NCBI GenBank assembly: GCA_040391705.1 | Contig: JBEBXE010000001.1 | Span: 239-64,238, forward strand | Source: Aerobium aerolatum | Lineage (GTDB): Bacteria > Pseudomonadota > Alphaproteobacteria > Rhizobiales > Rhizobiaceae | Direction of reading: 5' to 3' | Length of the DNA: 64,000 nt | Shown here: piece by piece, positions 19,637 to 30,032 of the stretch | Numbering within the stretch: the first letter of the stretch is position 1 | Layout: each line of letters starts with the position of its first letter | The notes under the pieces: model-generated | The model's input: the letters and a program-made list of their open reading frames with translations, nothing else | The model's database searches: none | What the model was told of the DNA's origin: nothing | Translations under genes and position numbers: made by a program

Positions 19637-21934
19637 TCAGTCGGACCGTGCGGCAAAGTCCGGCAGATCGAACGCGGAGACGCGCGGCACATCCCGGATC
19701 GGACCGCGCACCTCGACCAGACAGGTCTGCGCCACGCTGCCCTGCGCAAGGCTCGACGTTCCCCGGTCCAGCGTCAGCACATTGGGGTTGCCGTGCAGGT
19801 CCATGGCGGTGTCGGGATCGGGGTCGTACCAGGCGCCAGTGGCAAGGCGGGCCACGCCGGGCATGATGTCCGGGCTGAGGATCGCCCCGGCCAGGCACCG
19901 CCCGCGTTGATTGCCGAGTTCCACGACGTCGCCATCGCTGATGCCGCGCGCGGCCGCGTCCTGCGGGTTGAGATAGACCGGCTCGCGCCCCGCGACCTTG
20001 CCCTCAAGACTGTGGATGCCGGCATCGAGCTGGCTGTGCAGCCGCCGCTGCGGCTGATCGGACAGCAGATGCAGCCGTGTATCCCCCTCCCCGCACTGGC
20101 CCAGCCATTCGTCCGGCTCCAGCCACACCGCATGGCCCGGACAATCGTCGAGGCCAAAGCCGTCAATCGCCGCCGAGAAAATCTCGATGCGGCCCGACGG
20201 CGTCGACAGCGGGTGTGCTTCCGGGTCCCGGCGGAACTCTTCCAGCATCACCACCGGCCGGCTGTGATCGCCGAGATCGATCAGGTTGACGTCCCAGAAA
20301 TCCTTGAACGCCGGCAAGTCGACGCTGCGGCCGGCCATCCTGCCCCGGCTTTCCTCATAGAGCCGCTCGAGCCAGCCCATCGCGTCGAGACCTTCGGTGT
20401 AGTCCTGAACCGCGCCGAGCCGCGCGGCGATGCCGGCGAAAATGTCGTAATCGTCACGCGCCTCGCCCACGGCCGCCTTGACGCGCTTCATCGCGACCAG
20501 ATGCCCTTCGCGGGTCGAATAGCCGATATCGTCGCGCTCCATGCTGATCGTCGCCGGCAGCACGATGTCGGCCCGCTTGGCGGTCGCCGTCCAGTACTGC
20601 TCGTGGACCACGATCGTCTCGGGCTTTTCCCACGCCCGCGCCAGCCGGTTGAGGTCCTGATGGTGATGATAGGGGTTGCCGCCCGCCCAGTAGACCAGCC
20701 TGATATCCGGATAGGTGTGCACGCCGCCATCATAGGCAAAGCTGCCGCCCGGATCGAGCAGCATGTCGGTGATGCGCGCCACGGGTATGAAGGCGCTGAC
20801 CGGGTTCGACCCCTGATTCAAGGTCGGCCCAGGCAGCAGGCTTTCCGCGCTGCCAAGCGCGTTGGTCGCGCCATAGCCGAAACCGAAACCGCCACCCGGC
20901 AGGCCGATCTGCCCCAGCATCGCCGCCAGCGTCACCAGCATCCAGCACGGCTGCTCGCCATGCGACGCGCGCTGGAGCGACCATGCCATGTTGAGCATGG
21001 TGCGGGTGGCCGCCATGTCGCGGGCCAGCGCGGTGATGATGTCGGCCGGCACGCCGGTGATCTGTTCGGCCCAGCGTGGATCGCGCGCGACCCCGCCGTT
21101 GCTGCCCATCAGATAGGCCTCGAACCGCTCGAAGCCGACGCAATAGCGCTCAAGAAACGCGCGGTCGGCAAGCCCTTCGTCCACCAGCGTCCAGGCGATG
21201 GCCAGCATCAGCGCCGTGTCGGTGTTGGGACGCAGCCTGATCCATTCGACGCCCTCCGCCTCGAGATTGTCACCGACCGGGCCGATATTGACGATGCGCA
21301 CGCCCGCGTCGCCCAGCGCCTTCAGCCCGCCGCGGACACGGTGGCGCGCAATGCCGCCGGCCGAGATTTGCGCGTTCTTCCACGGCACGCCGCCGAAGGC
21401 GACGAAAAGACGGGTGTTTCCGGCCACCACATCCCACGAGGTGTGATTGGCCATCAGGCTTTCCATCGGCGCGATGATCCGCCCCATGATCACCCGCGCC
21501 GCGCCGAGGCTGTAGGAATTCAGATGACGGACATAGCCGCCGACGCTGTTGAGGAAGCGGTGCACCTGGCTCTGCGCGTGGTGGAACCGGCCGGCACTCG
21601 ACCAGCCATAGGAACCGCCGAAGATCGCTTCGTTGCCATGGTCCGAACGCACCCGCTTCAGTTCGGCGGCAACGAGATCGAGCGCCTCGTCCCATTCCAC
21701 CTCGACGAACGGATCTTTGCCCCGCAATTCGGGTGCTGCGCCGGGACCGTTTTCGAGCCAGCTCCGCCGCACCGCAGGCCGGCGCACGCGCAGGCCCTCC
21801 AGCCGGTCGCCATGCTGGTCGAGGCCGATCGGCGTCGGGTCAGGGTCGCCGGCAAAGTTCTCGACGTGAAGACCGCCGCTGGCGTCTTTCGCCACTTCGC
21901 GGATGCCCCAATGGGAGGACGTGTAGACTTTCAT
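19637..21934 (-). CDS. DMSO-reductase-family molybdoenzyme (BisC/TorZ-like S/N-oxide reductase), cytoplasmic
   Basis: TSSHWG, GSYGWSSAGRFH, NSYSLGAA (Ser ligand), YWAGGNP, RLHSQ, HGNPNVLTLD. No twin-arginine signal. Confidence 0.9.
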   Translation of the reverse strand: MKVYTSSHWGIREVAKDASGGLHVENFAGDPDPTPIGLDQHGDRLEGLRVRRPAVRRSWLENGPGAAPELRGKDPFVEVEWDEALDLVAAELKRVRSDHGNEAIFGGSYGWSSAGRFHHAQSQVHRFLNSVGGYVRHLNSYSLGAARVIMGRIIAPMESLMANHTSWDVVAGNTRLFVAFGGVPWKNAQISAGGIARHRVRGGLKALGDAGVRIVNIGPVGDNLEAEGVEWIRLRPNTDTALMLAIAWTLVDEGLADRAFLERYCVGFERFEAYLMGSNGGVARDPRWAEQITGVPADIITALARDMAATRTMLNMAWSLQRASHGEQPCWMLVTLAAMLGQIGLPGGGFGFGYGATNALGSAESLLPGPTLNQGSNPVSAFIPVARITDMLLDPGGSFAYDGGVHTYPDIRLVYWAGGNPYHHHQDLNRLARAWEKPETIVVHEQYWTATAKRADIVLPATISMERDDIGYSTREGHLVAMKRVKAAVGEARDDYDIFAGIAARLGAVQDYTEGLDAMGWLERLYEESRGRMAGRSVDLPAFKDFWDVNLIDLGDHSRPVVMLEEFRRDPEAHPLSTPSGRIEIFSAAIDGFGLDDCPGHAVWLEPDEWLGQCGEGDTRLHLLSDQPQRRLHSQLDAGIHSLEGKVAGREPVYLNPQDAAARGISDGDVVELGNQRGRCLAGAILSPDIMPGVARLATGAWYDPDPDTAMDLHGNPNVLTLDRGTSSLAQGSVAQTCLVEVRGPIRDVPRVSAFDLPDFAARSD

Positions 21935-21961
21935 GCCGGTCGATCTCCCGTTGAAGCGACG

Positions 21962-21996
21962 CTGCGGCTGGCGCGGATTTTTCACGCCAGCCGCAG
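21962..21996. terminator. Strong intercistronic hairpin (terminator-like or mRNA-stabilising)
   Basis: Perfect 12-bp stem CTGCGGCTGGCG/CGCCAGCCGCAG between the crotonase and the Mo-enzyme gene. No U-tract on the minus strand. Confidence 0.45.
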
Positions 21997-22029
21997 ATTG
22001 CTGGTCTTTCTACGCTGCGCGCAAAACGC

Positions 22030-22767
22030 TTATCGTCCCGTGAAGACCGGCTGGCGCTTTTCCTTGAACGCCGCCACGCCTTCCTTCAGATCGGTGCTGG
22101 TGCGGACCACGCCCAGATCGCGTGCAAACCGCGCCATCTTTTCCGACGGCGTCTGGGTCAATGTATGCTCGACGACGAAACGCTTCAGCGTCTTGAGGAC
22201 GAGCGGCGCCATCCCTTCGAGTTCCCGCGCCATCGTCAACGCCGCCTCGAGATGTTTGCCGTTCTCGACAACCTCGTTGACGAGCCCGACCTCATAGGCG
22301 CGGCGGCCCGAGACGGTGCGGCCCAGAAGCATGATCTCCATCGCGATCTTGTGGGGAATGCGCGCGGCGAGCGTTGCGATCATGCCGCCGGTCAGGCCGA
22401 CCTTGCCCTCGGGATAGGAGAAGCGGGTGTCTTCCGTCACGACGCACAGATCGGCCATCGCCGCCATCACCATGGCCCCGCCGATGCACCAGCCGCTGAT
22501 GGCGCAGATCACCGGCTTTTCCGTCAGGATGCCGACGGTCGGAATGCAGCGCCACAATTCCGGCATGTCGGTGATATCCGCGCCCGCCGAAAACGCCTTG
22601 TTGCCGGTGCTGGTAATGATCGCGACCGCCTGATCGGAGGCATCGAACTCCTCGAAGCGGCGCTGCAGCTCGCTGGCAACCTCCGCATTGATGGCGTTCA
22701 TCTTCTCCGGCCGGTTGATGGTGAAGATAGTCGTCTTGCCGTCGTTTCTCACTTCAAGCGCGGACAT
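22030..22767 (-). CDS. Enoyl-CoA hydratase/isomerase (crotonase) family protein
   Basis: INRPEKMNA, AFSAGADI, KPVICAISGWCIGG, FSYPEGKVG, AFKEKRQPVFTGR. Confidence 0.9.
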   Translation of the reverse strand: MSALEVRNDGKTTIFTINRPEKMNAINAEVASELQRRFEEFDASDQAVAIITSTGNKAFSAGADITDMPELWRCIPTVGILTEKPVICAISGWCIGGAMVMAAMADLCVVTEDTRFSYPEGKVGLTGGMIATLAARIPHKIAMEIMLLGRTVSGRRAYEVGLVNEVVENGKHLEAALTMARELEGMAPLVLKTLKRFVVEHTLTQTPSEKMARFARDLGVVRTSTDLKEGVAAFKEKRQPVFTGR

Positions 22768-22803
22768 GCATGGTCTCCCTGGATTTTTTTGATCGTTGCG
22801 TGG

Positions 22804-24939
22804 TCAGACAGGCGAAGCCAGCAAAAGCCGCCCGTCCACCGCCACGCATCCCTTGCCCGCCTCGGCAACCAGAAGCGGATTGATGTCGAGTTCGAGAAAG
22901 CGCGGGCCCATGTCATGGACCATCCAGCTCACCCGCGAGACGGCGTCGGCCGCCGCGTCGATGTCGAGCGGGCCGCTGCCCCTGAAGCCTTGCATCAGCT
23001 TGGCAATCTGGAGCTTTTCGATCATCGCGCGCGCCTGCTCAGGCGACACCGGCGCACGCGCGACCGATACGTCCTTGAGCAGTTCGACGAGAACGCCACC
23101 TGCCCCGACAATCACCATCGGGCCGAATTGCGCATCGTTGCGCGCGCCGATCAGCAGCTCCACCTTGCCGGTGCGCATTTCCTGAACGAGGTAGCCCTCG
23201 ATCTGTGCGTCCGGCCGGACCTTCGCAATCGACGCCTGCATCGCGGTGACGGCGGCAGCCACATCGCTGGGCGTCTCGAGATTGAGGACGACACCGCCGA
23301 CATCAGATTTGTGCACGATATCCGGCGACACGATCTTGACCACGAACGGGCCTTCGAGCCGGCTCGCCACCGCTTCGGCCTGCGCCGCGTCGGCAACGAC
23401 TTCGCCGCGATTGACCGGAATGCCGTGGCCGGCAAGGATCGCTTTGGTATCGGCTTCCCCGACGCCGCCGGAAAGCTCGGCTGCCAGTGCTACCTGCGGC
23501 ATATCTGCCGGGCGCACAGGCTCCGGGGCAGGAACGGTTTCCGCCAGCCTGCGCCATGCCGCGATCGCGCGGATCGCGTCGTCGAGGCTGTCGGTGTAGA
23601 GGCTGTTCTGCTCACGCAGGAAACTGCGCGCGCCATCTGCCGAACCGCCCTGCTGAAGCACGATGATATGCGGCTTCACGAAGCCCTCGGCCTTGGCCTC
23701 CTTCGTGCCCTCGTCGAATTTGCGGCACAACAGCTCGACATCCGGCGCAGTGGTCAGCGCCGACAGGATGAGATCGGCGTCCGGGTCCTTGATCACGGCC
23801 TTGATCGTTCCCGACCCGACCAGCATCGAACCGCCCGCCTTGGCCGTCCCCATGTCGATCGGGTTGGTCGCGGCGGCGTTTTCCGGATACAGCTCCGACA
23901 GCGCGTCGAAGGACTGGCGCGACAGCTGCGCCAGCGGAATGCCGCTATCGGTCAGCCGGTCAGCGGTGATCGCACCGCCGCCACCAGACGTGGTGACGAT
24001 GGCGACGTTGTTCGGGCGCGCGGCGGGGTAATGGCCCAAACCGGCTGCCAGCAGCACCATCGCGTCGACATCGTCCATGACGAGAACGCCGCAATCGCGA
24101 CAGGCAGCGGAGAACGCCTCATAGCTGCCGGCCAGGCTTGCCGTGTGCGAGAACGCAGCCGCAGCGCCGAATTCCGTCCGTCCGGCCTTGACCGCCAGCC
24201 ATGGCTTGCCGGCCGCATGGGCGCGACGGGCCGTCTCCATGAAGCGCGGCGCGTCCTTGATGCCCTCGATATAGGTGCAGATGATGCTCGTCCGCTCGTC
24301 GGCGATCAGGTAGTCGACGAAGTCGCACATATCCATGTCGGCCTGGTTGCCGATGGAGAAGCAGTGCGAGAAGCCGATGCCCCGCGCCAGCGCCCGGTCG
24401 AAGATCGTCGCCATCAGCGCGCCGCTCTGGCTGACCAGTCCGATCCCGCCCTGTGGCATGTGGTCGACGAAAAGCGCCGGCGAGGCACACAGCACCAGAT
24501 TGTTGGCGGGGCTGATGATGCCGAGGCAGTTCGGGCCGATGATGCGCATCCCCTTGGCGTTGGCCACCTCGACGATCTCACGTTCGAGGGCCGCCCCTTC
24601 CGGTCCGGCATCGGAGAATTTGGCGGTGATGACAATGGCGGCGCGGGTGCCGGCATCGGCGCAGGCTTGGACCGCGTCCTTCACCATCTCGCGCGGCACC
24701 GCCATCACCGCCATGTCTGGCGGGGTCGGCGCCGCGTCGATGGAAGGGTAGCATTTGATGCCGAGCAACTGGTCGCGCTTCGGATTGATCGGGTAGATCG
24801 CACCGGTGAAGCCGTGATGCACGAGGTTCTTGTAGATGCGTCCGCCAAACTTGGTCAGATCCTCGGAGGCTCCGATCACGGCGACGGAACGGGGCGCAAG
24901 CACCTCACCGGTCTTTTTGATTTCCGACATCGCATTCAT
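22804..24939 (-). CDS. ADP-forming acyl-CoA synthetase (fused CoA-binding + ATP-grasp)
   Basis: PRSVAVIGAS, GPNCLG, SQSGA, SHTASLAG (phospho-His), VHKSDVGGV, LDINPL. Confidence 0.92.
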   Translation of the reverse strand: MNAMSEIKKTGEVLAPRSVAVIGASEDLTKFGGRIYKNLVHHGFTGAIYPINPKRDQLLGIKCYPSIDAAPTPPDMAVMAVPREMVKDAVQACADAGTRAAIVITAKFSDAGPEGAALEREIVEVANAKGMRIIGPNCLGIISPANNLVLCASPALFVDHMPQGGIGLVSQSGALMATIFDRALARGIGFSHCFSIGNQADMDMCDFVDYLIADERTSIICTYIEGIKDAPRFMETARRAHAAGKPWLAVKAGRTEFGAAAAFSHTASLAGSYEAFSAACRDCGVLVMDDVDAMVLLAAGLGHYPAARPNNVAIVTTSGGGGAITADRLTDSGIPLAQLSRQSFDALSELYPENAAATNPIDMGTAKAGGSMLVGSGTIKAVIKDPDADLILSALTTAPDVELLCRKFDEGTKEAKAEGFVKPHIIVLQQGGSADGARSFLREQNSLYTDSLDDAIRAIAAWRRLAETVPAPEPVRPADMPQVALAAELSGGVGEADTKAILAGHGIPVNRGEVVADAAQAEAVASRLEGPFVVKIVSPDIVHKSDVGGVVLNLETPSDVAAAVTAMQASIAKVRPDAQIEGYLVQEMRTGKVELLIGARNDAQFGPMVIVGAGGVLVELLKDVSVARAPVSPEQARAMIEKLQIAKLMQGFRGSGPLDIDAAADAVSRVSWMVHDMGPRFLELDINPLLVAEAGKGCVAVDGRLLLASPV

Positions 24940-24954
24940 GTAGGTGGCCCTCCT

Positions 24955-25728
24955 CTAGGGCGCGCTCGGGGCTGTCGCCCTGTCCCGCGTCTGTTTTGCC
25001 TGCGCCATGGCGCGATAAGTGATGATCCTCTGGCCCAGGCCCGGACGTGCCGCCGAGCGCACGAGGGCCGCCAGATCGCTGTCGAGAACGGCCGCCGCAT
25101 CGCCAACGGCAAGCCGCAGCGCTGCAACGGTTTCCGCGTCCAGACGTGTCGCTTCCTGCATGGCTTGCGCCAATGCCTGATCGAGTTGCTCCGGCGCGAC
25201 GATCTCGGTCACGAGGCCAAGCGCATGTGCTTCCTGCGCGTCCAGCACCCGCCCGGAAGTGACCGCCGACAGCCCGGCATCGCGGCCGATGCGAACCGCC
25301 AGCCGGCGCGTGCCAAGCACGAGGCCAAAGGCTGCGCCGGGAAAGCTGAAGCTCGCATCGGGAAGCGCCAGCCTGATCGAGCAGGCGGCGAAAAGGTCCG
25401 CGCCCGCCCCGAAGGTGCGGCCCTTGGCGATCGCCAGCGTCGCAAACGGCGCGCTCCAGACGCGGGCAAGCAACTGCTCGATCCGCACGAACCGCGCCAG
25501 AAGGTCGCCGTCGCTGGCCTCCTCCAGTCCGGCAAGATCGAAGCCGGTGCAGAAATTACGGCCCGCGCCTTCGATGACCAGAAGCCGCGTACCGTTTCGC
25601 TCCGCCTCATCGAGCGCGCGGTGCAGCAGGTCGACGAGGTCATCCGACAGGCTGTTGCCACGATCCGGCCGCGACAGGACGAGCGTCCGCCGCCCGTCCC
25701 GGTCCGTGATGGCAAGCGGCGTGCTCAC
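24955..25728 (-). CDS. Crotonase-family protein lacking the canonical catalytic glutamates
   Basis: LSRPDRGNSL, FCTGFDL, GAGADL, FSFPGAAFG. GTG start overlaps the dioxygenase stop. Confidence 0.85.
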   Translation of the reverse strand: MSTPLAITDRDGRRTLVLSRPDRGNSLSDDLVDLLHRALDEAERNGTRLLVIEGAGRNFCTGFDLAGLEEASDGDLLARFVRIEQLLARVWSAPFATLAIAKGRTFGAGADLFAACSIRLALPDASFSFPGAAFGLVLGTRRLAVRIGRDAGLSAVTSGRVLDAQEAHALGLVTEIVAPEQLDQALAQAMQEATRLDAETVAALRLAVGDAAAVLDSDLAALVRSAARPGLGQRIITYRAMAQAKQTRDRATAPSAP

Positions 25729-27712: not shown

Positions 27713-29086
27713 TCAGGCCGGCTCGGCTTGTTTCACGACCTCGTCGAGCGCCTTTTCGACGCCGTCGAAGATCATGTCGATCTGCTGCTCGTTGATGATC
27801 AGCGGCGGGCAGAAGGCGATTGCTTCGCGCAGCGCGCGCACAATGACGCCATTCTCCATCGCCTTCGCCTGAACGGCCGGGCCGACGCCCAATTCAGGTG
27901 CGTATGGGGTTCGCGTCTGCTTGTCGCTGACCAACTCGATCGCCCCGATCAGGCCGACGCCCCGTGCTTCACCGACATTCGGACGCTCAGCCAGCGCATG
28001 CAGCCGCTGGAGGAAGCGCTTGGAGACCTGCTGGACATGGCCGACAATGTCGCGCTCTTCGTAAATCTTCAGCGTCTCCAGTGCGACCGCGGCACAGACA
28101 GGATGGCCGGAATAGGTCACGCCATGGGCGAAACCGCCGAGCTTGGTGCTCTGATCCATCATCGCCGCATAGATGTCGTCGCTGACGATCGTCGCCGAAA
28201 TCGGCAGGTAGGACGATGACAGCGCCTTGGCCACGGTCATGATGTCGGGCTTGATGTCATATGTCTCGCAGCCGAACATGTTGCCGGTGCGCCCGAAGCC
28301 GCAGATCACCTCGTCGGCGATGAACATAATGTCGTGCTTCTTCAGCAGCGCCTGGACCGCCGCATAATAGCCTTCCGGCGGCACGATCACGCCGCCCGAG
28401 CCGCAGACCGGCTCGGCAATGAAGGCGGCAACGGTTTCCGGCCCTTCCTTGAGGATGAGCTGCTCAAGATTTCCGACCAACCGCTTGGTGAAATCGGCCA
28501 CGCTCTCGCCCGGCTTGGCGCCATGATAGTAGCTCGGCGCATCCGTATGCAGGATGTTGGCGATCGGCAGGTCGAAATCGGCATGATTGGCCGGCAGGCC
28601 GGTCAGGCTGGCCGAAGCGATGGTCACGCCATGATAGCCGCGCCAGCGCGAGATGATCTTCTTCTTCTCGGGGCGGCCGCGTGCATTATTGAAGTACCAG
28701 ACCAGCTTGACCGCCTGGTCGTTGGCCTCCGAACCGGAATTGGCGAACAACACCTTGCCGAGCCCCTGCGGCACGATCGTCAGCAGCTTCTCGGCCAGTT
28801 CGATGGTCGGTTCCACCGAGCGGTGGTTGAACAGATGATAATAAGGCAGCTTTTCAAACTGGCGCATCGCGGCGTCGATCAGTCTGCGCTCGCTGAACCC
28901 CAGCGATGTCGACCACAGGCCGGACATGCCCTCGATATAGCGGCGGCCCTGATCGTCCTCGACAAAGACGCCGTCGCCGCGCGTCATGACGACGGGGCCG
29001 ACTTCGGGGTGGCGTGCCAGATTCGTATACGGATGAATCAGGCTGGCGACATCGTTCACGGAATTGGAGTTGCTGCGCGCGTTCAT
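27713..29086 (-). CDS. Class-III PLP aminotransferase (omega-amine type)
   Basis: SGSEAND, GYHG, FIAEPV, ADEVICGFGRTG, TVAKALSS (PLP lysine), HGVTYSGHP. Confidence 0.93.
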   Translation of the reverse strand: MNARSNSNSVNDVASLIHPYTNLARHPEVGPVVMTRGDGVFVEDDQGRRYIEGMSGLWSTSLGFSERRLIDAAMRQFEKLPYYHLFNHRSVEPTIELAEKLLTIVPQGLGKVLFANSGSEANDQAVKLVWYFNNARGRPEKKKIISRWRGYHGVTIASASLTGLPANHADFDLPIANILHTDAPSYYHGAKPGESVADFTKRLVGNLEQLILKEGPETVAAFIAEPVCGSGGVIVPPEGYYAAVQALLKKHDIMFIADEVICGFGRTGNMFGCETYDIKPDIMTVAKALSSSYLPISATIVSDDIYAAMMDQSTKLGGFAHGVTYSGHPVCAAVALETLKIYEERDIVGHVQQVSKRFLQRLHALAERPNVGEARGVGLIGAIELVSDKQTRTPYAPELGVGPAVQAKAMENGVIVRALREAIAFCPPLIINEQQIDMIFDGVEKALDEVVKQAEPA

Positions 29087-29279: not shown

Positions 29280-30032
29280 ATGGACAAAACCTTGTTGAAG
29301 GGTTTGCAGGTTCTCGAGCACATCGTCGGATCCGAAACCAATGTCCGGATCACTGACGTGGCTGCCGATCTGGGCCTGACCAAGAGCAACGCGCACCGCG
29401 TGCTCAAGACGCTCGAATTCGCGGGGTATCTGCAGCAGGACCCGAAATCGCGCGAATACACGACGAGCCTGAAGCTGTGGGAACTTGGGTCGGAAATCGT
29501 CAATCGGCTGGATATCCGGGTCCACGCTTCCGAGACCCTGCACAAGCTGGCGCAGGAAGCGCGCGAAGCGGTGCACCTGTCGATTCTGGACGATGATCAG
29601 GTCATCTATATCGACAAGATCGACAGTCCCGAGCCGATTGGCACCTATACGCGCATGGGTGGCCGCGCGCCTGCATATTGCGTCGCGACCGGCAAAGCGC
29701 TGCTTTGCCACCTGTCTGAGAAGGAATTGCAGCCGATTCTCACCCATCTCAAGGCATATTCGCGCAACACCATCGTCGAGCCGCAGGAGTTGCTGCGCGA
29801 ATTGGAGCTTTCGCGTGAGCGTGGCTACACGATCAACCGTGGCGAATGGCGCGAAAGCGTGTGGGGCATCGCCACGGCGATTCGCGGCCCATCCTCCCAG
29901 GTGGTTGCGGCGATCGGCGTTTCGGGGCCGGAATATCACCTGAACCAGGAAGGCCGCTGCGAGGCCCTGGCAGAGATGGTGATCCGCGCCGGCCGCGAGA
30001 TCTCGGCCAATATTGGTTACCGGGGCGCATAG
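29280..30032 (+). CDS. IclR-family transcriptional regulator
   Basis: HTH LGLTKSNAHRVLKTL, E-A-V-H-L, PAYCVATGKALL, GIATAI, AIGVSGP. Confidence 0.94.
   Translation: MDKTLLKGLQVLEHIVGSETNVRITDVAADLGLTKSNAHRVLKTLEFAGYLQQDPKSREYTTSLKLWELGSEIVNRLDIRVHASETLHKLAQEAREAVHLSILDDDQVIYIDKIDSPEPIGTYTRMGGRAPAYCVATGKALLCHLSEKELQPILTHLKAYSRNTIVEPQELLRELELSRERGYTINRGEWRESVWGIATAIRGPSSQVVAAIGVSGPEYHLNQEGRCEALAEMVIRAGREISANIGYRGA

Follow-up and report, generated by a model that had tools for sequence, protein, structure and literature searches.

3-Mercaptopropionate (3MP) is a common natural thiol that arises from the breakdown of dimethylsulfoniopropionate (DMSP), methionine and homocysteine, and to our knowledge the only characterised route for its assimilation needs a flavoprotein desulfinase of an unusual kind, which a few Betaproteobacteria are known to possess. 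The present work concerns a stretch of Aerobium aerolatum DNA of 64,000 nucleotides (contig JBEBXE010000001.1 of assembly GCA_040391705.1, positions 239 to 64,238; hereafter the window), which carries on its minus strand two crotonases, labelled ECH1 (22030–22767) and ECH2 (24955–25728), with ECH2 directly beside a 3-mercaptopropionate dioxygenase (Mdo). It has been reported that in Advenella mimigardefordensis and Variovorax paradoxus TBEA6 Mdo converts 3MP into 3-sulfinopropionate (3SP), that the coenzyme A ester (3SP-CoA) is formed by SucCD or by the family III transferase Act, and that Acd/AcdA, a desulfinase with the acyl-CoA-dehydrogenase fold, converts 3SP-CoA into propionyl-CoA and sulfite (PMC6370202; PMC5373536). 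The Advenella cluster has the order CoA-transferase III, Acd desulfinase, Mdo, AhpD-domain gene, TctC and TctC (PMC5373536); in A. mimigardefordensis DPN7 these are represented by CoA-transferase III MIM_c31380, Acd c31390, Mdo c31400 and TctC, and V. paradoxus TBEA6 has Mdo, Act and AcdA.

The locus in the window has in common with the Advenella and Variovorax systems Mdo, a family III CoA-transferase and the expected intermediates 3SP and 3SP-CoA, and TctC-type receptors occur in related loci. However, where the described clusters contain Acd, which holds flavin adenine dinucleotide (FAD), the window has a crotonase beside Mdo in its place, and its regulator belongs to the IclR family, whereas LysR/XRE regulators are found in Advenella and Variovorax. 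The minus-strand gene string is best explained as an operon for the CoA-dependent catabolism of 3MP. By homology, Mdo oxidises 3MP to 3SP; the family III CoA-transferase would form 3SP-CoA, as Act does in Variovorax; and ECH2, judging from its gene context alone, would take 3SP-CoA and break the C3–S bond, doing the job of the unrelated FAD-containing Acd/AcdA. The chance that ECH2 processes 3SP-CoA and releases its sulfur, as this context suggests, is put at slightly below even.

The Mdo of the window matches the solved 3-mercaptopropionate dioxygenases 6XB9, 4TLF and 4QMA with E values of 1e-64 to 1e-66, compared with 3e-10 for mercaptosuccinate dioxygenase and about 1e-6 for cysteine dioxygenases, and is by sequence similarity a clear 3-mercaptopropionate dioxygenase orthologue. 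When one genome per prokaryotic species was scanned, at least 389 genomes proved to encode a relative of ECH2; the 80 best loci, from Alpha- and Betaproteobacteria, were examined. Among the 73 loci with enough upstream DNA for neighbour counts, Mdo lies within 3 kb of the ECH2 homologue in 49, a CoA-transferase with at least 50% identity to that of the window lies within 4 kb in 50, and 38 loci have the two together. The three genes most often stand in the order CoA-transferase, Mdo, ECH2, frequently accompanied by genes for TctC receptors and an IclR regulator; about 22 related loci have IclR genes at the flanks of the module. Acyl-CoA dehydrogenase genes were seen in only about 4 of the 80 loci, and no other conserved candidate for desulfination was found among the neighbours in these loci. 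In a maximum-likelihood tree of ECH2 the Mdo-linked state is found throughout, and the unlinked copies (Roseomonadaceae, Thalassobaculum and some Bordetella) are nested inside; linkage to Mdo thus appears to be the ancestral and dominant context of ECH2. In the window the GTG start of ECH2 overlaps the TGA stop of the dioxygenase, an arrangement that fits translational coupling of the two genes, and 26 of 47 loci allow an ECH2 start that overlaps the Mdo stop, a count in which start-codon choice favours short gaps. In two Reyranellaceae loci, a gene for a leucine-rich-repeat protein of 1040–1180 amino acids (aa) lies directly downstream of Mdo–ECH2, which is odd for a catabolic module.

The Acd-type desulfinase was sought with its curated model NF042439 (cut-off 600 bits). 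No protein over this cut-off was found in the source genome (a 3.47-Mb assembly of 438 contigs, 81% complete), where the best score was 264 bits, and among the 31 genomes with the Mdo–ECH2 module only 2 had one and it was not found in 29. ECH2 itself has the crotonase fold and not the acyl-CoA-dehydrogenase fold that defines Acd/AcdA, and any function common to the two would be a case of analogy rather than homology. Of 400 genomes sampled evenly from the phylum, 13 had Mdo, 1 of them with AcdA, 1 with ECH2 and 11 with neither, and no CoA-transferase was found within 1.5 kb of Mdo at any locus of these 13 genomes. This distribution fits a scheme in which only the CoA route needs ECH2 or AcdA, the sample being small and its genomes non-independent. 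As for the methylcitrate-cycle genes, which might tell a propionyl-CoA from an acryloyl-CoA product, no PrpB or PrpC above cut-off was found in this incomplete genome, and the result is uninformative.

Both crotonases belong to PF00378 (cut-off 27 bits) by profile and by fold, and their AlphaFold2 (AF2) models match crotonase structures. The oxyanion-hole motifs are present in both proteins, namely FSAGAD and IGGAM in ECH1 and FCTGFD and FGAGAD in ECH2, the latter pair being kept family-wide. In rat enoyl-CoA hydratase, the pair Glu144/Glu164 is required for efficient hydration. All crotonase open reading frames (ORFs) of the source genome were aligned to one profile with hmmalign, with two FadB-type multifunctional proteins that have the Glu/Glu pair as internal references; at the two hydratase glutamate columns ECH1 has Val100 and Glu120, and ECH2 has Asp111 and Gly131. 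The corresponding motifs are GGAMV (residues 96–100) and YPE (118–120) in ECH1 and GAGAD (107–111) and FPG (129–131) in ECH2. In a HMMER alignment, Val100 of ECH1 stands opposite the Glu of GGTELA in EchA1 of Mycobacterium tuberculosis, and the PE glutamate is common to both. Neither crotonase therefore has the Glu at both sites that characterises a canonical enoyl-CoA hydratase (EC 4.2.1.17). A profile–profile alignment of the ECH1 and ECH2 families with hhalign was dropped, having moved the first site by two columns through a local gap; the ungapped spacing was preferred because both families have 8 residues from the Gly to the first site, which agrees with the hmmalign and PDB alignments. 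An earlier note, made from the letters of the DNA, had stated that neither crotonase has the standard two-glutamate site, that ECH1 shows GGAMV and keeps only the PE glutamate, that ECH2 with GAGAD and FPG has neither glutamate, and that ECH2 is translationally coupled to the thiol dioxygenase. These statements agree with the alignments and with the GTGA overlap; that on ECH2 is literally true, yet a carboxylate, Asp111, stays at its first site.

Both substitution patterns are conserved, fixed by selection and not chance lesions. Among 25 homologues of ECH1 with 62–89% identity, Val100 is kept in at least 90% and Glu120 in 100%, and both residues are also found in 12 operon-linked ECH1 homologues; for ECH2, the residues at both sites are constant in the homologues aligned (Table 1). 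The Asp/Gly pattern is found in ECH2 alone among the 20 crotonase ORFs of the genome.

The only close solved relative of ECH2 is PDB 3ISA (E 5e-57, about 49% identity), a protein of Bordetella parapertussis from structural genomics with no assigned function; it has the FGAGxDL and PG motifs in common with ECH2 and belongs to the same subfamily, and in a B. parapertussis locus Mdo lies directly upstream of the ECH2 homologue. The AF2 model of ECH2 has a predicted local distance difference test score (pLDDT) of 94.6 and a template modelling score (TM) of 0.90 to 3ISA. Full-length similarity and the motifs FGAGxDL, FPG..FG.VLGTRRL and LVRSA..PGL, traced in 79 homologues, place ECH2 in this 3ISA-type subfamily. 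No NCBIfam equivalog was assigned to ECH2, the best score being 103 bits against a cut-off of 313; the methylmalonyl-CoA decarboxylase model NF008506 (cut-off 257 bits) is not among its 25 best families, and matches in the ESM Atlas have generic crotonase names only. A literature search found no paper on the 3ISA family, on a crotonase-type desulfinase or on a characterised Mdo/CoA-transferase/crotonase operon. The Brucella BaaR operon was considered as a literature match and rejected as an unrelated adipate (dca) system.

Within the 79 homologues, Gly62 and Asp64 of the FCTGFD motif and Gly107, Ala108, Gly109 and Asp111 of the FGAGAD motif are invariant, and so are the family-specific residues Arg79 and Glu84 (both on the long helix), Asp111, Arg142 and Ser225, while Arg119 (78/79) and Arg234 (77/79) are nearly so. 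The FPG..FG.VLGTRRL loop after the second site is three residues shorter than that of hydratases, and the C-terminal motif LVRSAARPGL..RI..YR is family-specific. The invariant Arg79 and Arg142, together with Arg119 and Arg234, suggest a substrate with a distal anionic group. In comparison with the canonical hydratase (rat ECHS1, PDB 1DUB/2DUB, and FadB-type domains), the fold, the N-terminal CoA-binding motifs and the oxyanion-hole motif are common to ECH1 and ECH2; however, ECH1 has Val for the first Glu, and ECH2 has Asp and Gly for both, a shorter loop after the second site and another C-terminal helix motif. The next structural neighbours of ECH2 after 3ISA are VirD, LnmF and PksH, dehydratases of polyketide beta-branching (TM 0.75–0.77), which have a similar C-terminal helix arrangement at only 28–30% identity. 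Their substrates are thioesters of the 3-hydroxy-3-methylglutaryl (HMG) type with a distal carboxylate and are bound to an acyl carrier protein, unlike the CoA ester proposed for ECH2. For VirD a catalytic Glu128 has been reported (PMC10006238), whereas ECH2 has Gly at the second site. DmdD, the methylthioacryloyl-CoA hydratase of DMSP demethylation (PDB 4IZB–4IZD), is among the PDB matches of ECH2, as is its E121A mutant structure, and is a crotonase whose substrate is a C3 acyl-CoA with sulfur and whose reaction ends in C–S cleavage. DmdD has a Glu pair, Glu121 with Glu141, and depends on prior dehydrogenation, whereas in ECH2 both Glu positions are changed and the module has no dehydrogenase partner.

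According to the proposed mechanism, the thioester of 3SP-CoA would be held in the retained oxyanion hole formed by the backbone NH groups of Thr61 and Ala108, and Arg79, Arg119, Arg142 and Arg234 would hold the distal sulfinate and the CoA phosphates; Asp111, perhaps with Glu84, would act as the base at C-alpha. Two courses can be envisaged from this point. In a beta-elimination of the conjugate-base type (E1cB), the enolate would be stabilised in the oxyanion hole, sulfur would leave at the sulfoxylate/sulfite level and acryloyl-CoA would be the product; sulfoxylate donors are known to add to acrylates, and this step would run that reaction backwards. Alternatively, a hydrolytic desulfination would yield propionyl-CoA and sulfite, as with Acd. 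It is tentatively proposed, at rather less than even chances, that the 3ISA-family crotonases are cofactor-free 3-sulfinopropionyl-CoA C–S lyases/desulfinases, a reaction type new to the superfamily.

Several observations weigh against this assignment of ECH2. The 3ISA structure is an unannotated structural-genomics entry, and the ECH2 family is enzymatically uncharacterised. On the chemical side, stabilising a C-alpha enolate does not obviously help the cleavage of a C-beta sulfinate to propionyl-CoA and sulfite, and the sulfoxylate released on the elimination route is biologically unusual. Homologues of ECH2 that keep every invariant residue also occur apart from Mdo: in Variovorax 8X the protein is encoded beside a PrpD-like gene and the CoA-transferase; in three Thalassobaculum loci it comes after a gene of the isocitrate/isopropylmalate-dehydrogenase family and before an aldo-keto reductase; and in the Roseomonadaceae (Dankookia, Siccirubricoccus) it comes after an AtuA-like gene pair. 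Furthermore, 5 of the 9 genomes with Mdo-unlinked ECH2 carry an Acd-type desulfinase, the Roseicella copy lying 4.6 kb upstream of ECH2, and ECH2 is therefore not strictly an alternative to Acd; its substrate class may be more general, comprising succinyl-CoA-like esters. The absence of AcdA has to be down-weighted because this enzyme is rare among Mdo genomes anyway (1/13), and the source genome is only 81% complete. As a caveat on the site pattern itself, the Glu/Glu pair is found in only 4 of the 20 crotonase ORFs of the source genome, and 9 of them (ECH1 and 8 paralogues) have the non-acidic plus Glu pattern, so that absence of the pair is the rule in the crotonase superfamily and is not unusual alone. 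The suggestion of the earlier note that ECH2 may replace a missing desulfinase thus holds in part: the conserved module, the position that Acd occupies in the Advenella cluster and the failure to find an Acd above cut-off in the genome and in 29 of 31 module genomes speak for it, and the desulfinases in the genomes with unlinked ECH2 speak against it.

ECH2 might, on another view, act before Mdo and not after it. The CoA-transferase would then activate a 3-thio-substituted propionate such as 3,3'-thiodipropionate, 3-methylthiopropionate or 3MP, ECH2 would free the thiol (3MP, methanethiol or sulfide) and acryloyl-CoA by a retro-thia-Michael (E1cB) reaction, and Mdo would serve to detoxify 3MP. 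Beta-elimination of a thiolate is ordinary crotonase-type chemistry, and TctC-type carboxylate receptors accompany the module. In V. paradoxus TBEA6, enoyl-CoA hydratase homologues and a crotonase of the mdo/act/acdA cluster are needed for, or improve, growth on thiodipropionate, and beta-elimination from thiodipropionyl-CoA has been proposed for Variovorax (PMC6370202). However, the coupled three-gene core is widespread in soil and water Alpha- and Betaproteobacteria, which suits the natural 3MP better than the synthetic thiodipropionate, and the 3SP that Mdo produces would be a dead end in those 29 of the 31 module genomes in which AcdA was not found; this order of events is considered unlikely. 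An equally low probability is given to ECH2 having no part in C–S cleavage and working on the carbon skeleton, for instance by hydration, decarboxylation or thioester hydrolysis, of small succinyl-CoA-like CoA esters of the dicarboxyl type formed by its partner CoA-transferase, with sulfur lost spontaneously or through an enzyme encoded elsewhere. The Mdo-free CoA-transferase/ECH2 pairs of Variovorax 8X, Thalassobaculum and Roseomonadaceae, in which the catalytic-looking residues are unchanged, would be explained in this way, as would the 7 of 40 genomes in which ECH2 and an Acd-type desulfinase occur together, and the nearest characterised structures act on thioesters with a distal carboxylate. 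Against such a carbon-skeleton role, the linkage to Mdo is apparently ancestral and dominant, the unlinked copies are confined to a few nested lineages, and the module would be left without any conserved candidate for desulfination.

Least probable among the alternatives, and doubtful on the present evidence, is a reading of ECH1 and ECH2 as ordinary enoyl-CoA hydratases or isomerases with the second acid at another place in the fold (Glu70 in ECH1, and Glu84 with Asp111 in ECH2), the missing glutamates being meaningless. Glu70 and Glu84 are invariant, 16 of the 20 crotonase paralogues of the genome lack the Glu/Glu pair, and the closest structures to ECH1 are ordinary and hydratase-like; however, established enzymology of the rat enzyme ties efficient hydration to its glutamate pair, and ECH2, which falls far below the cut-off of its best NCBIfam equivalog, has a reshaped loop after the second site and a family-specific C-terminal motif.

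With regard to ECH1 (model pLDDT 90.3), the nearest PDB entries are EchA1 of M. tuberculosis and structural-genomics proteins named carnitinyl-CoA dehydratase. The segment after its first oxyanion motif is about 10 residues shorter than that of canonical hydratases and holds the invariant PELWR motif (Glu70, Trp72, Arg73), in which Glu70 could be the second acid. ECH1 scores 112.9 bits against the methylmalonyl-CoA decarboxylase model NF008506, below the cut-off of 257, and no isomerase family model was above cut-off. In enoyl-CoA isomerase-like crotonases with a single glutamate, the Glu of the second site alone is retained and serves as a proton shuttle; ECH1 and 8 other paralogues have this pattern of residues. 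An efficient classical hydratase is unlikely because the water-activating glutamate is lost. ECH1 is probably a single-base crotonase that acts together with the neighbouring ADP-forming synthetase on the CoA ester handled by the latter; it may carry out beta-elimination, isomerisation or, by means of Glu70, atypical hydration of a C3 acyl-CoA, for instance acryloyl-CoA or a 3-thio-substituted propionyl-CoA. The nearest PDB entries to the synthetase are the ADP-forming 4-hydroxybutyrate-/3-hydroxypropionate-CoA ligases of ammonia-oxidising archaea (8WZU, 9Y43), an affinity that fits C3 metabolism around acryloyl-CoA and 3-hydroxypropionyl-CoA. A role as a DddX-type ATP-dependent DMSP lyase was considered for it and rejected, DddX (7CM9) being more distant than the ADP-forming hydroxy-acid CoA ligases. 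A DddX-like clade has been described in Roseobacters (PMC13543886), and some of the homologous loci come from Paracoccaceae.

The wider distribution of ECH1 differs from that of the core module. Of the 80 ECH2 loci, 12 have an ECH1 homologue placed immediately after ECH2 or after the synthetase. An unbiased metagenome scan gave 37 ECH1 loci of at least 4 kb, with relatives at 57–64% identity, and in 24 of them no sulfur-module gene was found nearby, which weighs against a sulfur role for this protein. The commonest neighbours are a metallo-beta-lactamase-fold protein, a 2-oxoglutarate (2OG)-Fe(II) oxygenase, a haloacid dehalogenase (HAD) hydrolase and a major facilitator superfamily (MFS) transporter; other loci have the synthetase upstream or the molybdoenzyme downstream. 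In ECH1-family genes of about 58–62% identity (metagenome loci L098, L123, L140, L141, L146, L157), a metallo-beta-lactamase-fold gene lies directly downstream, and genes for a 2OG-Fe(II) oxygenase, a HAD hydrolase, an MFS transporter and a response regulator lie upstream; this neighbourhood has the look of a gene cluster not yet characterised. ECH1 thus supplements the core module and is no part of it, with a wider family of its own and no specific tie to C–S chemistry. The earlier note had suggested for both crotonases non-standard chemistry such as C–S cleavage or desulfination of an acyl-CoA; the conserved module context favours this for ECH2, and the case is weak for ECH1, single-glutamate crotonases being common and its relatives lying mostly outside sulfur contexts.

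As shown in Table 1, the string comprises seven minus-strand genes in the order class III aminotransferase, CoA-transferase, Mdo, ECH2, acyl-CoA synthetase, ECH1 and molybdoenzyme. The gap between ECH2 and the synthetase is 15 nt and carries an AGGAGG motif, and that between the synthetase and ECH1 is 36 nt; such tight spacing fits a single transcript but is not proof of one, and scans for terminators and promoters gave chance level only. No NCBIfam equivalog was found at cut-off for the CoA-transferase. A Dpp-like ABC importer lies on the plus strand alongside the divergent IclR gene.

Table 1. Coordinates of the genes, the gene overlap and the catalytic-site codons in the window.
Feature	Position	Strand	Evidence or remark
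Class III (omega-type) aminotransferase, first gene of the string	27713–29086	-	PF00202 E 7e-97; NF004767 725 bits, above cut-off
Family III CoA-transferase, Act-like, 388 aa	26382–27548	-	PF02515 E 4e-122
3-Mercaptopropionate dioxygenase (Mdo) orthologue, 194 aa	25725–26309	-	PDB 6XB9, 4TLF E ~1e-65
GTGA overlap of Mdo stop and ECH2 start	25725–25728	-	Sequence gcGTGAgc
ECH2, crotonase of the 3ISA family, 257 aa	24955–25728	-	PF00378 E 1e-24, 87.5 bits; PDB 3ISA E 5e-57
ECH2 Asp111 codon GAC, first hydratase Glu position	25396–25398	-	Asp in 79/79 homologues
ECH2 Gly131 codon GGC, second hydratase Glu position	25336–25338	-	Gly in 79/79 homologues
ADP-forming (NDP-forming) acyl-CoA synthetase, fused alpha/beta, 711 aa	22804–24939	-	Pfam CoA_binding, Succ_CoA_lig, ATP-grasp_5
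ECH1, crotonase, 245 aa	22030–22767	-	PF00378 E 1e-43, 149.9 bits
ECH1 Glu70 codon GAA, in invariant PELWR motif; candidate alternative acid/base	22558–22560	-	Family alignment
ECH1 Val100 codon GTG, first Glu position	22468–22470	-	Alignments
ECH1 Glu120 codon GAG, second Glu kept	22408–22410	-	Alignments
BisC/TorA-type molybdopterin S-/N-oxide reductase, last gene of the string	19637–21985	-	TIGR00509 921 bits, below 1017 cut-off
IclR-family regulator, divergent	29280–30032	+	Pfam IclR_C, HTH_IclR

An orthologue of ECH2 was found in none of 40 sampled relatives of the source genome, including 17 congeners, which marks the cluster as accessory. Arvimicrobium flavum and Microvirga sp. M2 have the nearest named homologues of both ECH1 and ECH2, and within each of these genomes the two are probably on one contig. 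A homologue of the molybdoenzyme comes after ECH1 in several related loci, and the synthetase, ECH1 and the BisC-type molybdoenzyme (19637–24939) recur as a unit both with the Mdo module (L016, L041) and without it (metagenome loci L110, L097, L143 and L145); in L043, L056 and L063 the synthetase–ECH1 pair is on the Mdo module and the molybdoenzyme lies upstream. A C3 acid with a sulfoxide group is a possible substrate of this trio. Two starts come into question for the molybdoenzyme gene: its longest ORF begins at GTG 21985, but an ATG 17 codons later (MKVYTSSHW, about 21934) suits the BisC-family profile better. No evident twin-arginine signal was found in it, and the enzyme is therefore probably cytoplasmic.

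The type of pathway to which the locus is assigned is known, and a crotonase in the place of the desulfinase would be a new variant of it. The claim for ECH1, one of many single-glutamate crotonases, is much less important. If the proposal for ECH2 is true, the crotonase superfamily would gain a new reaction, the solved but unannotated structure 3ISA would gain a function, and genome annotations would have to be revised with respect to organosulfur turnover in Proteobacteria of soil and water. The module would then stand for an FAD-independent variant of 3MP catabolism, commoner among Alpha- and Betaproteobacteria than the Acd route of the textbooks.

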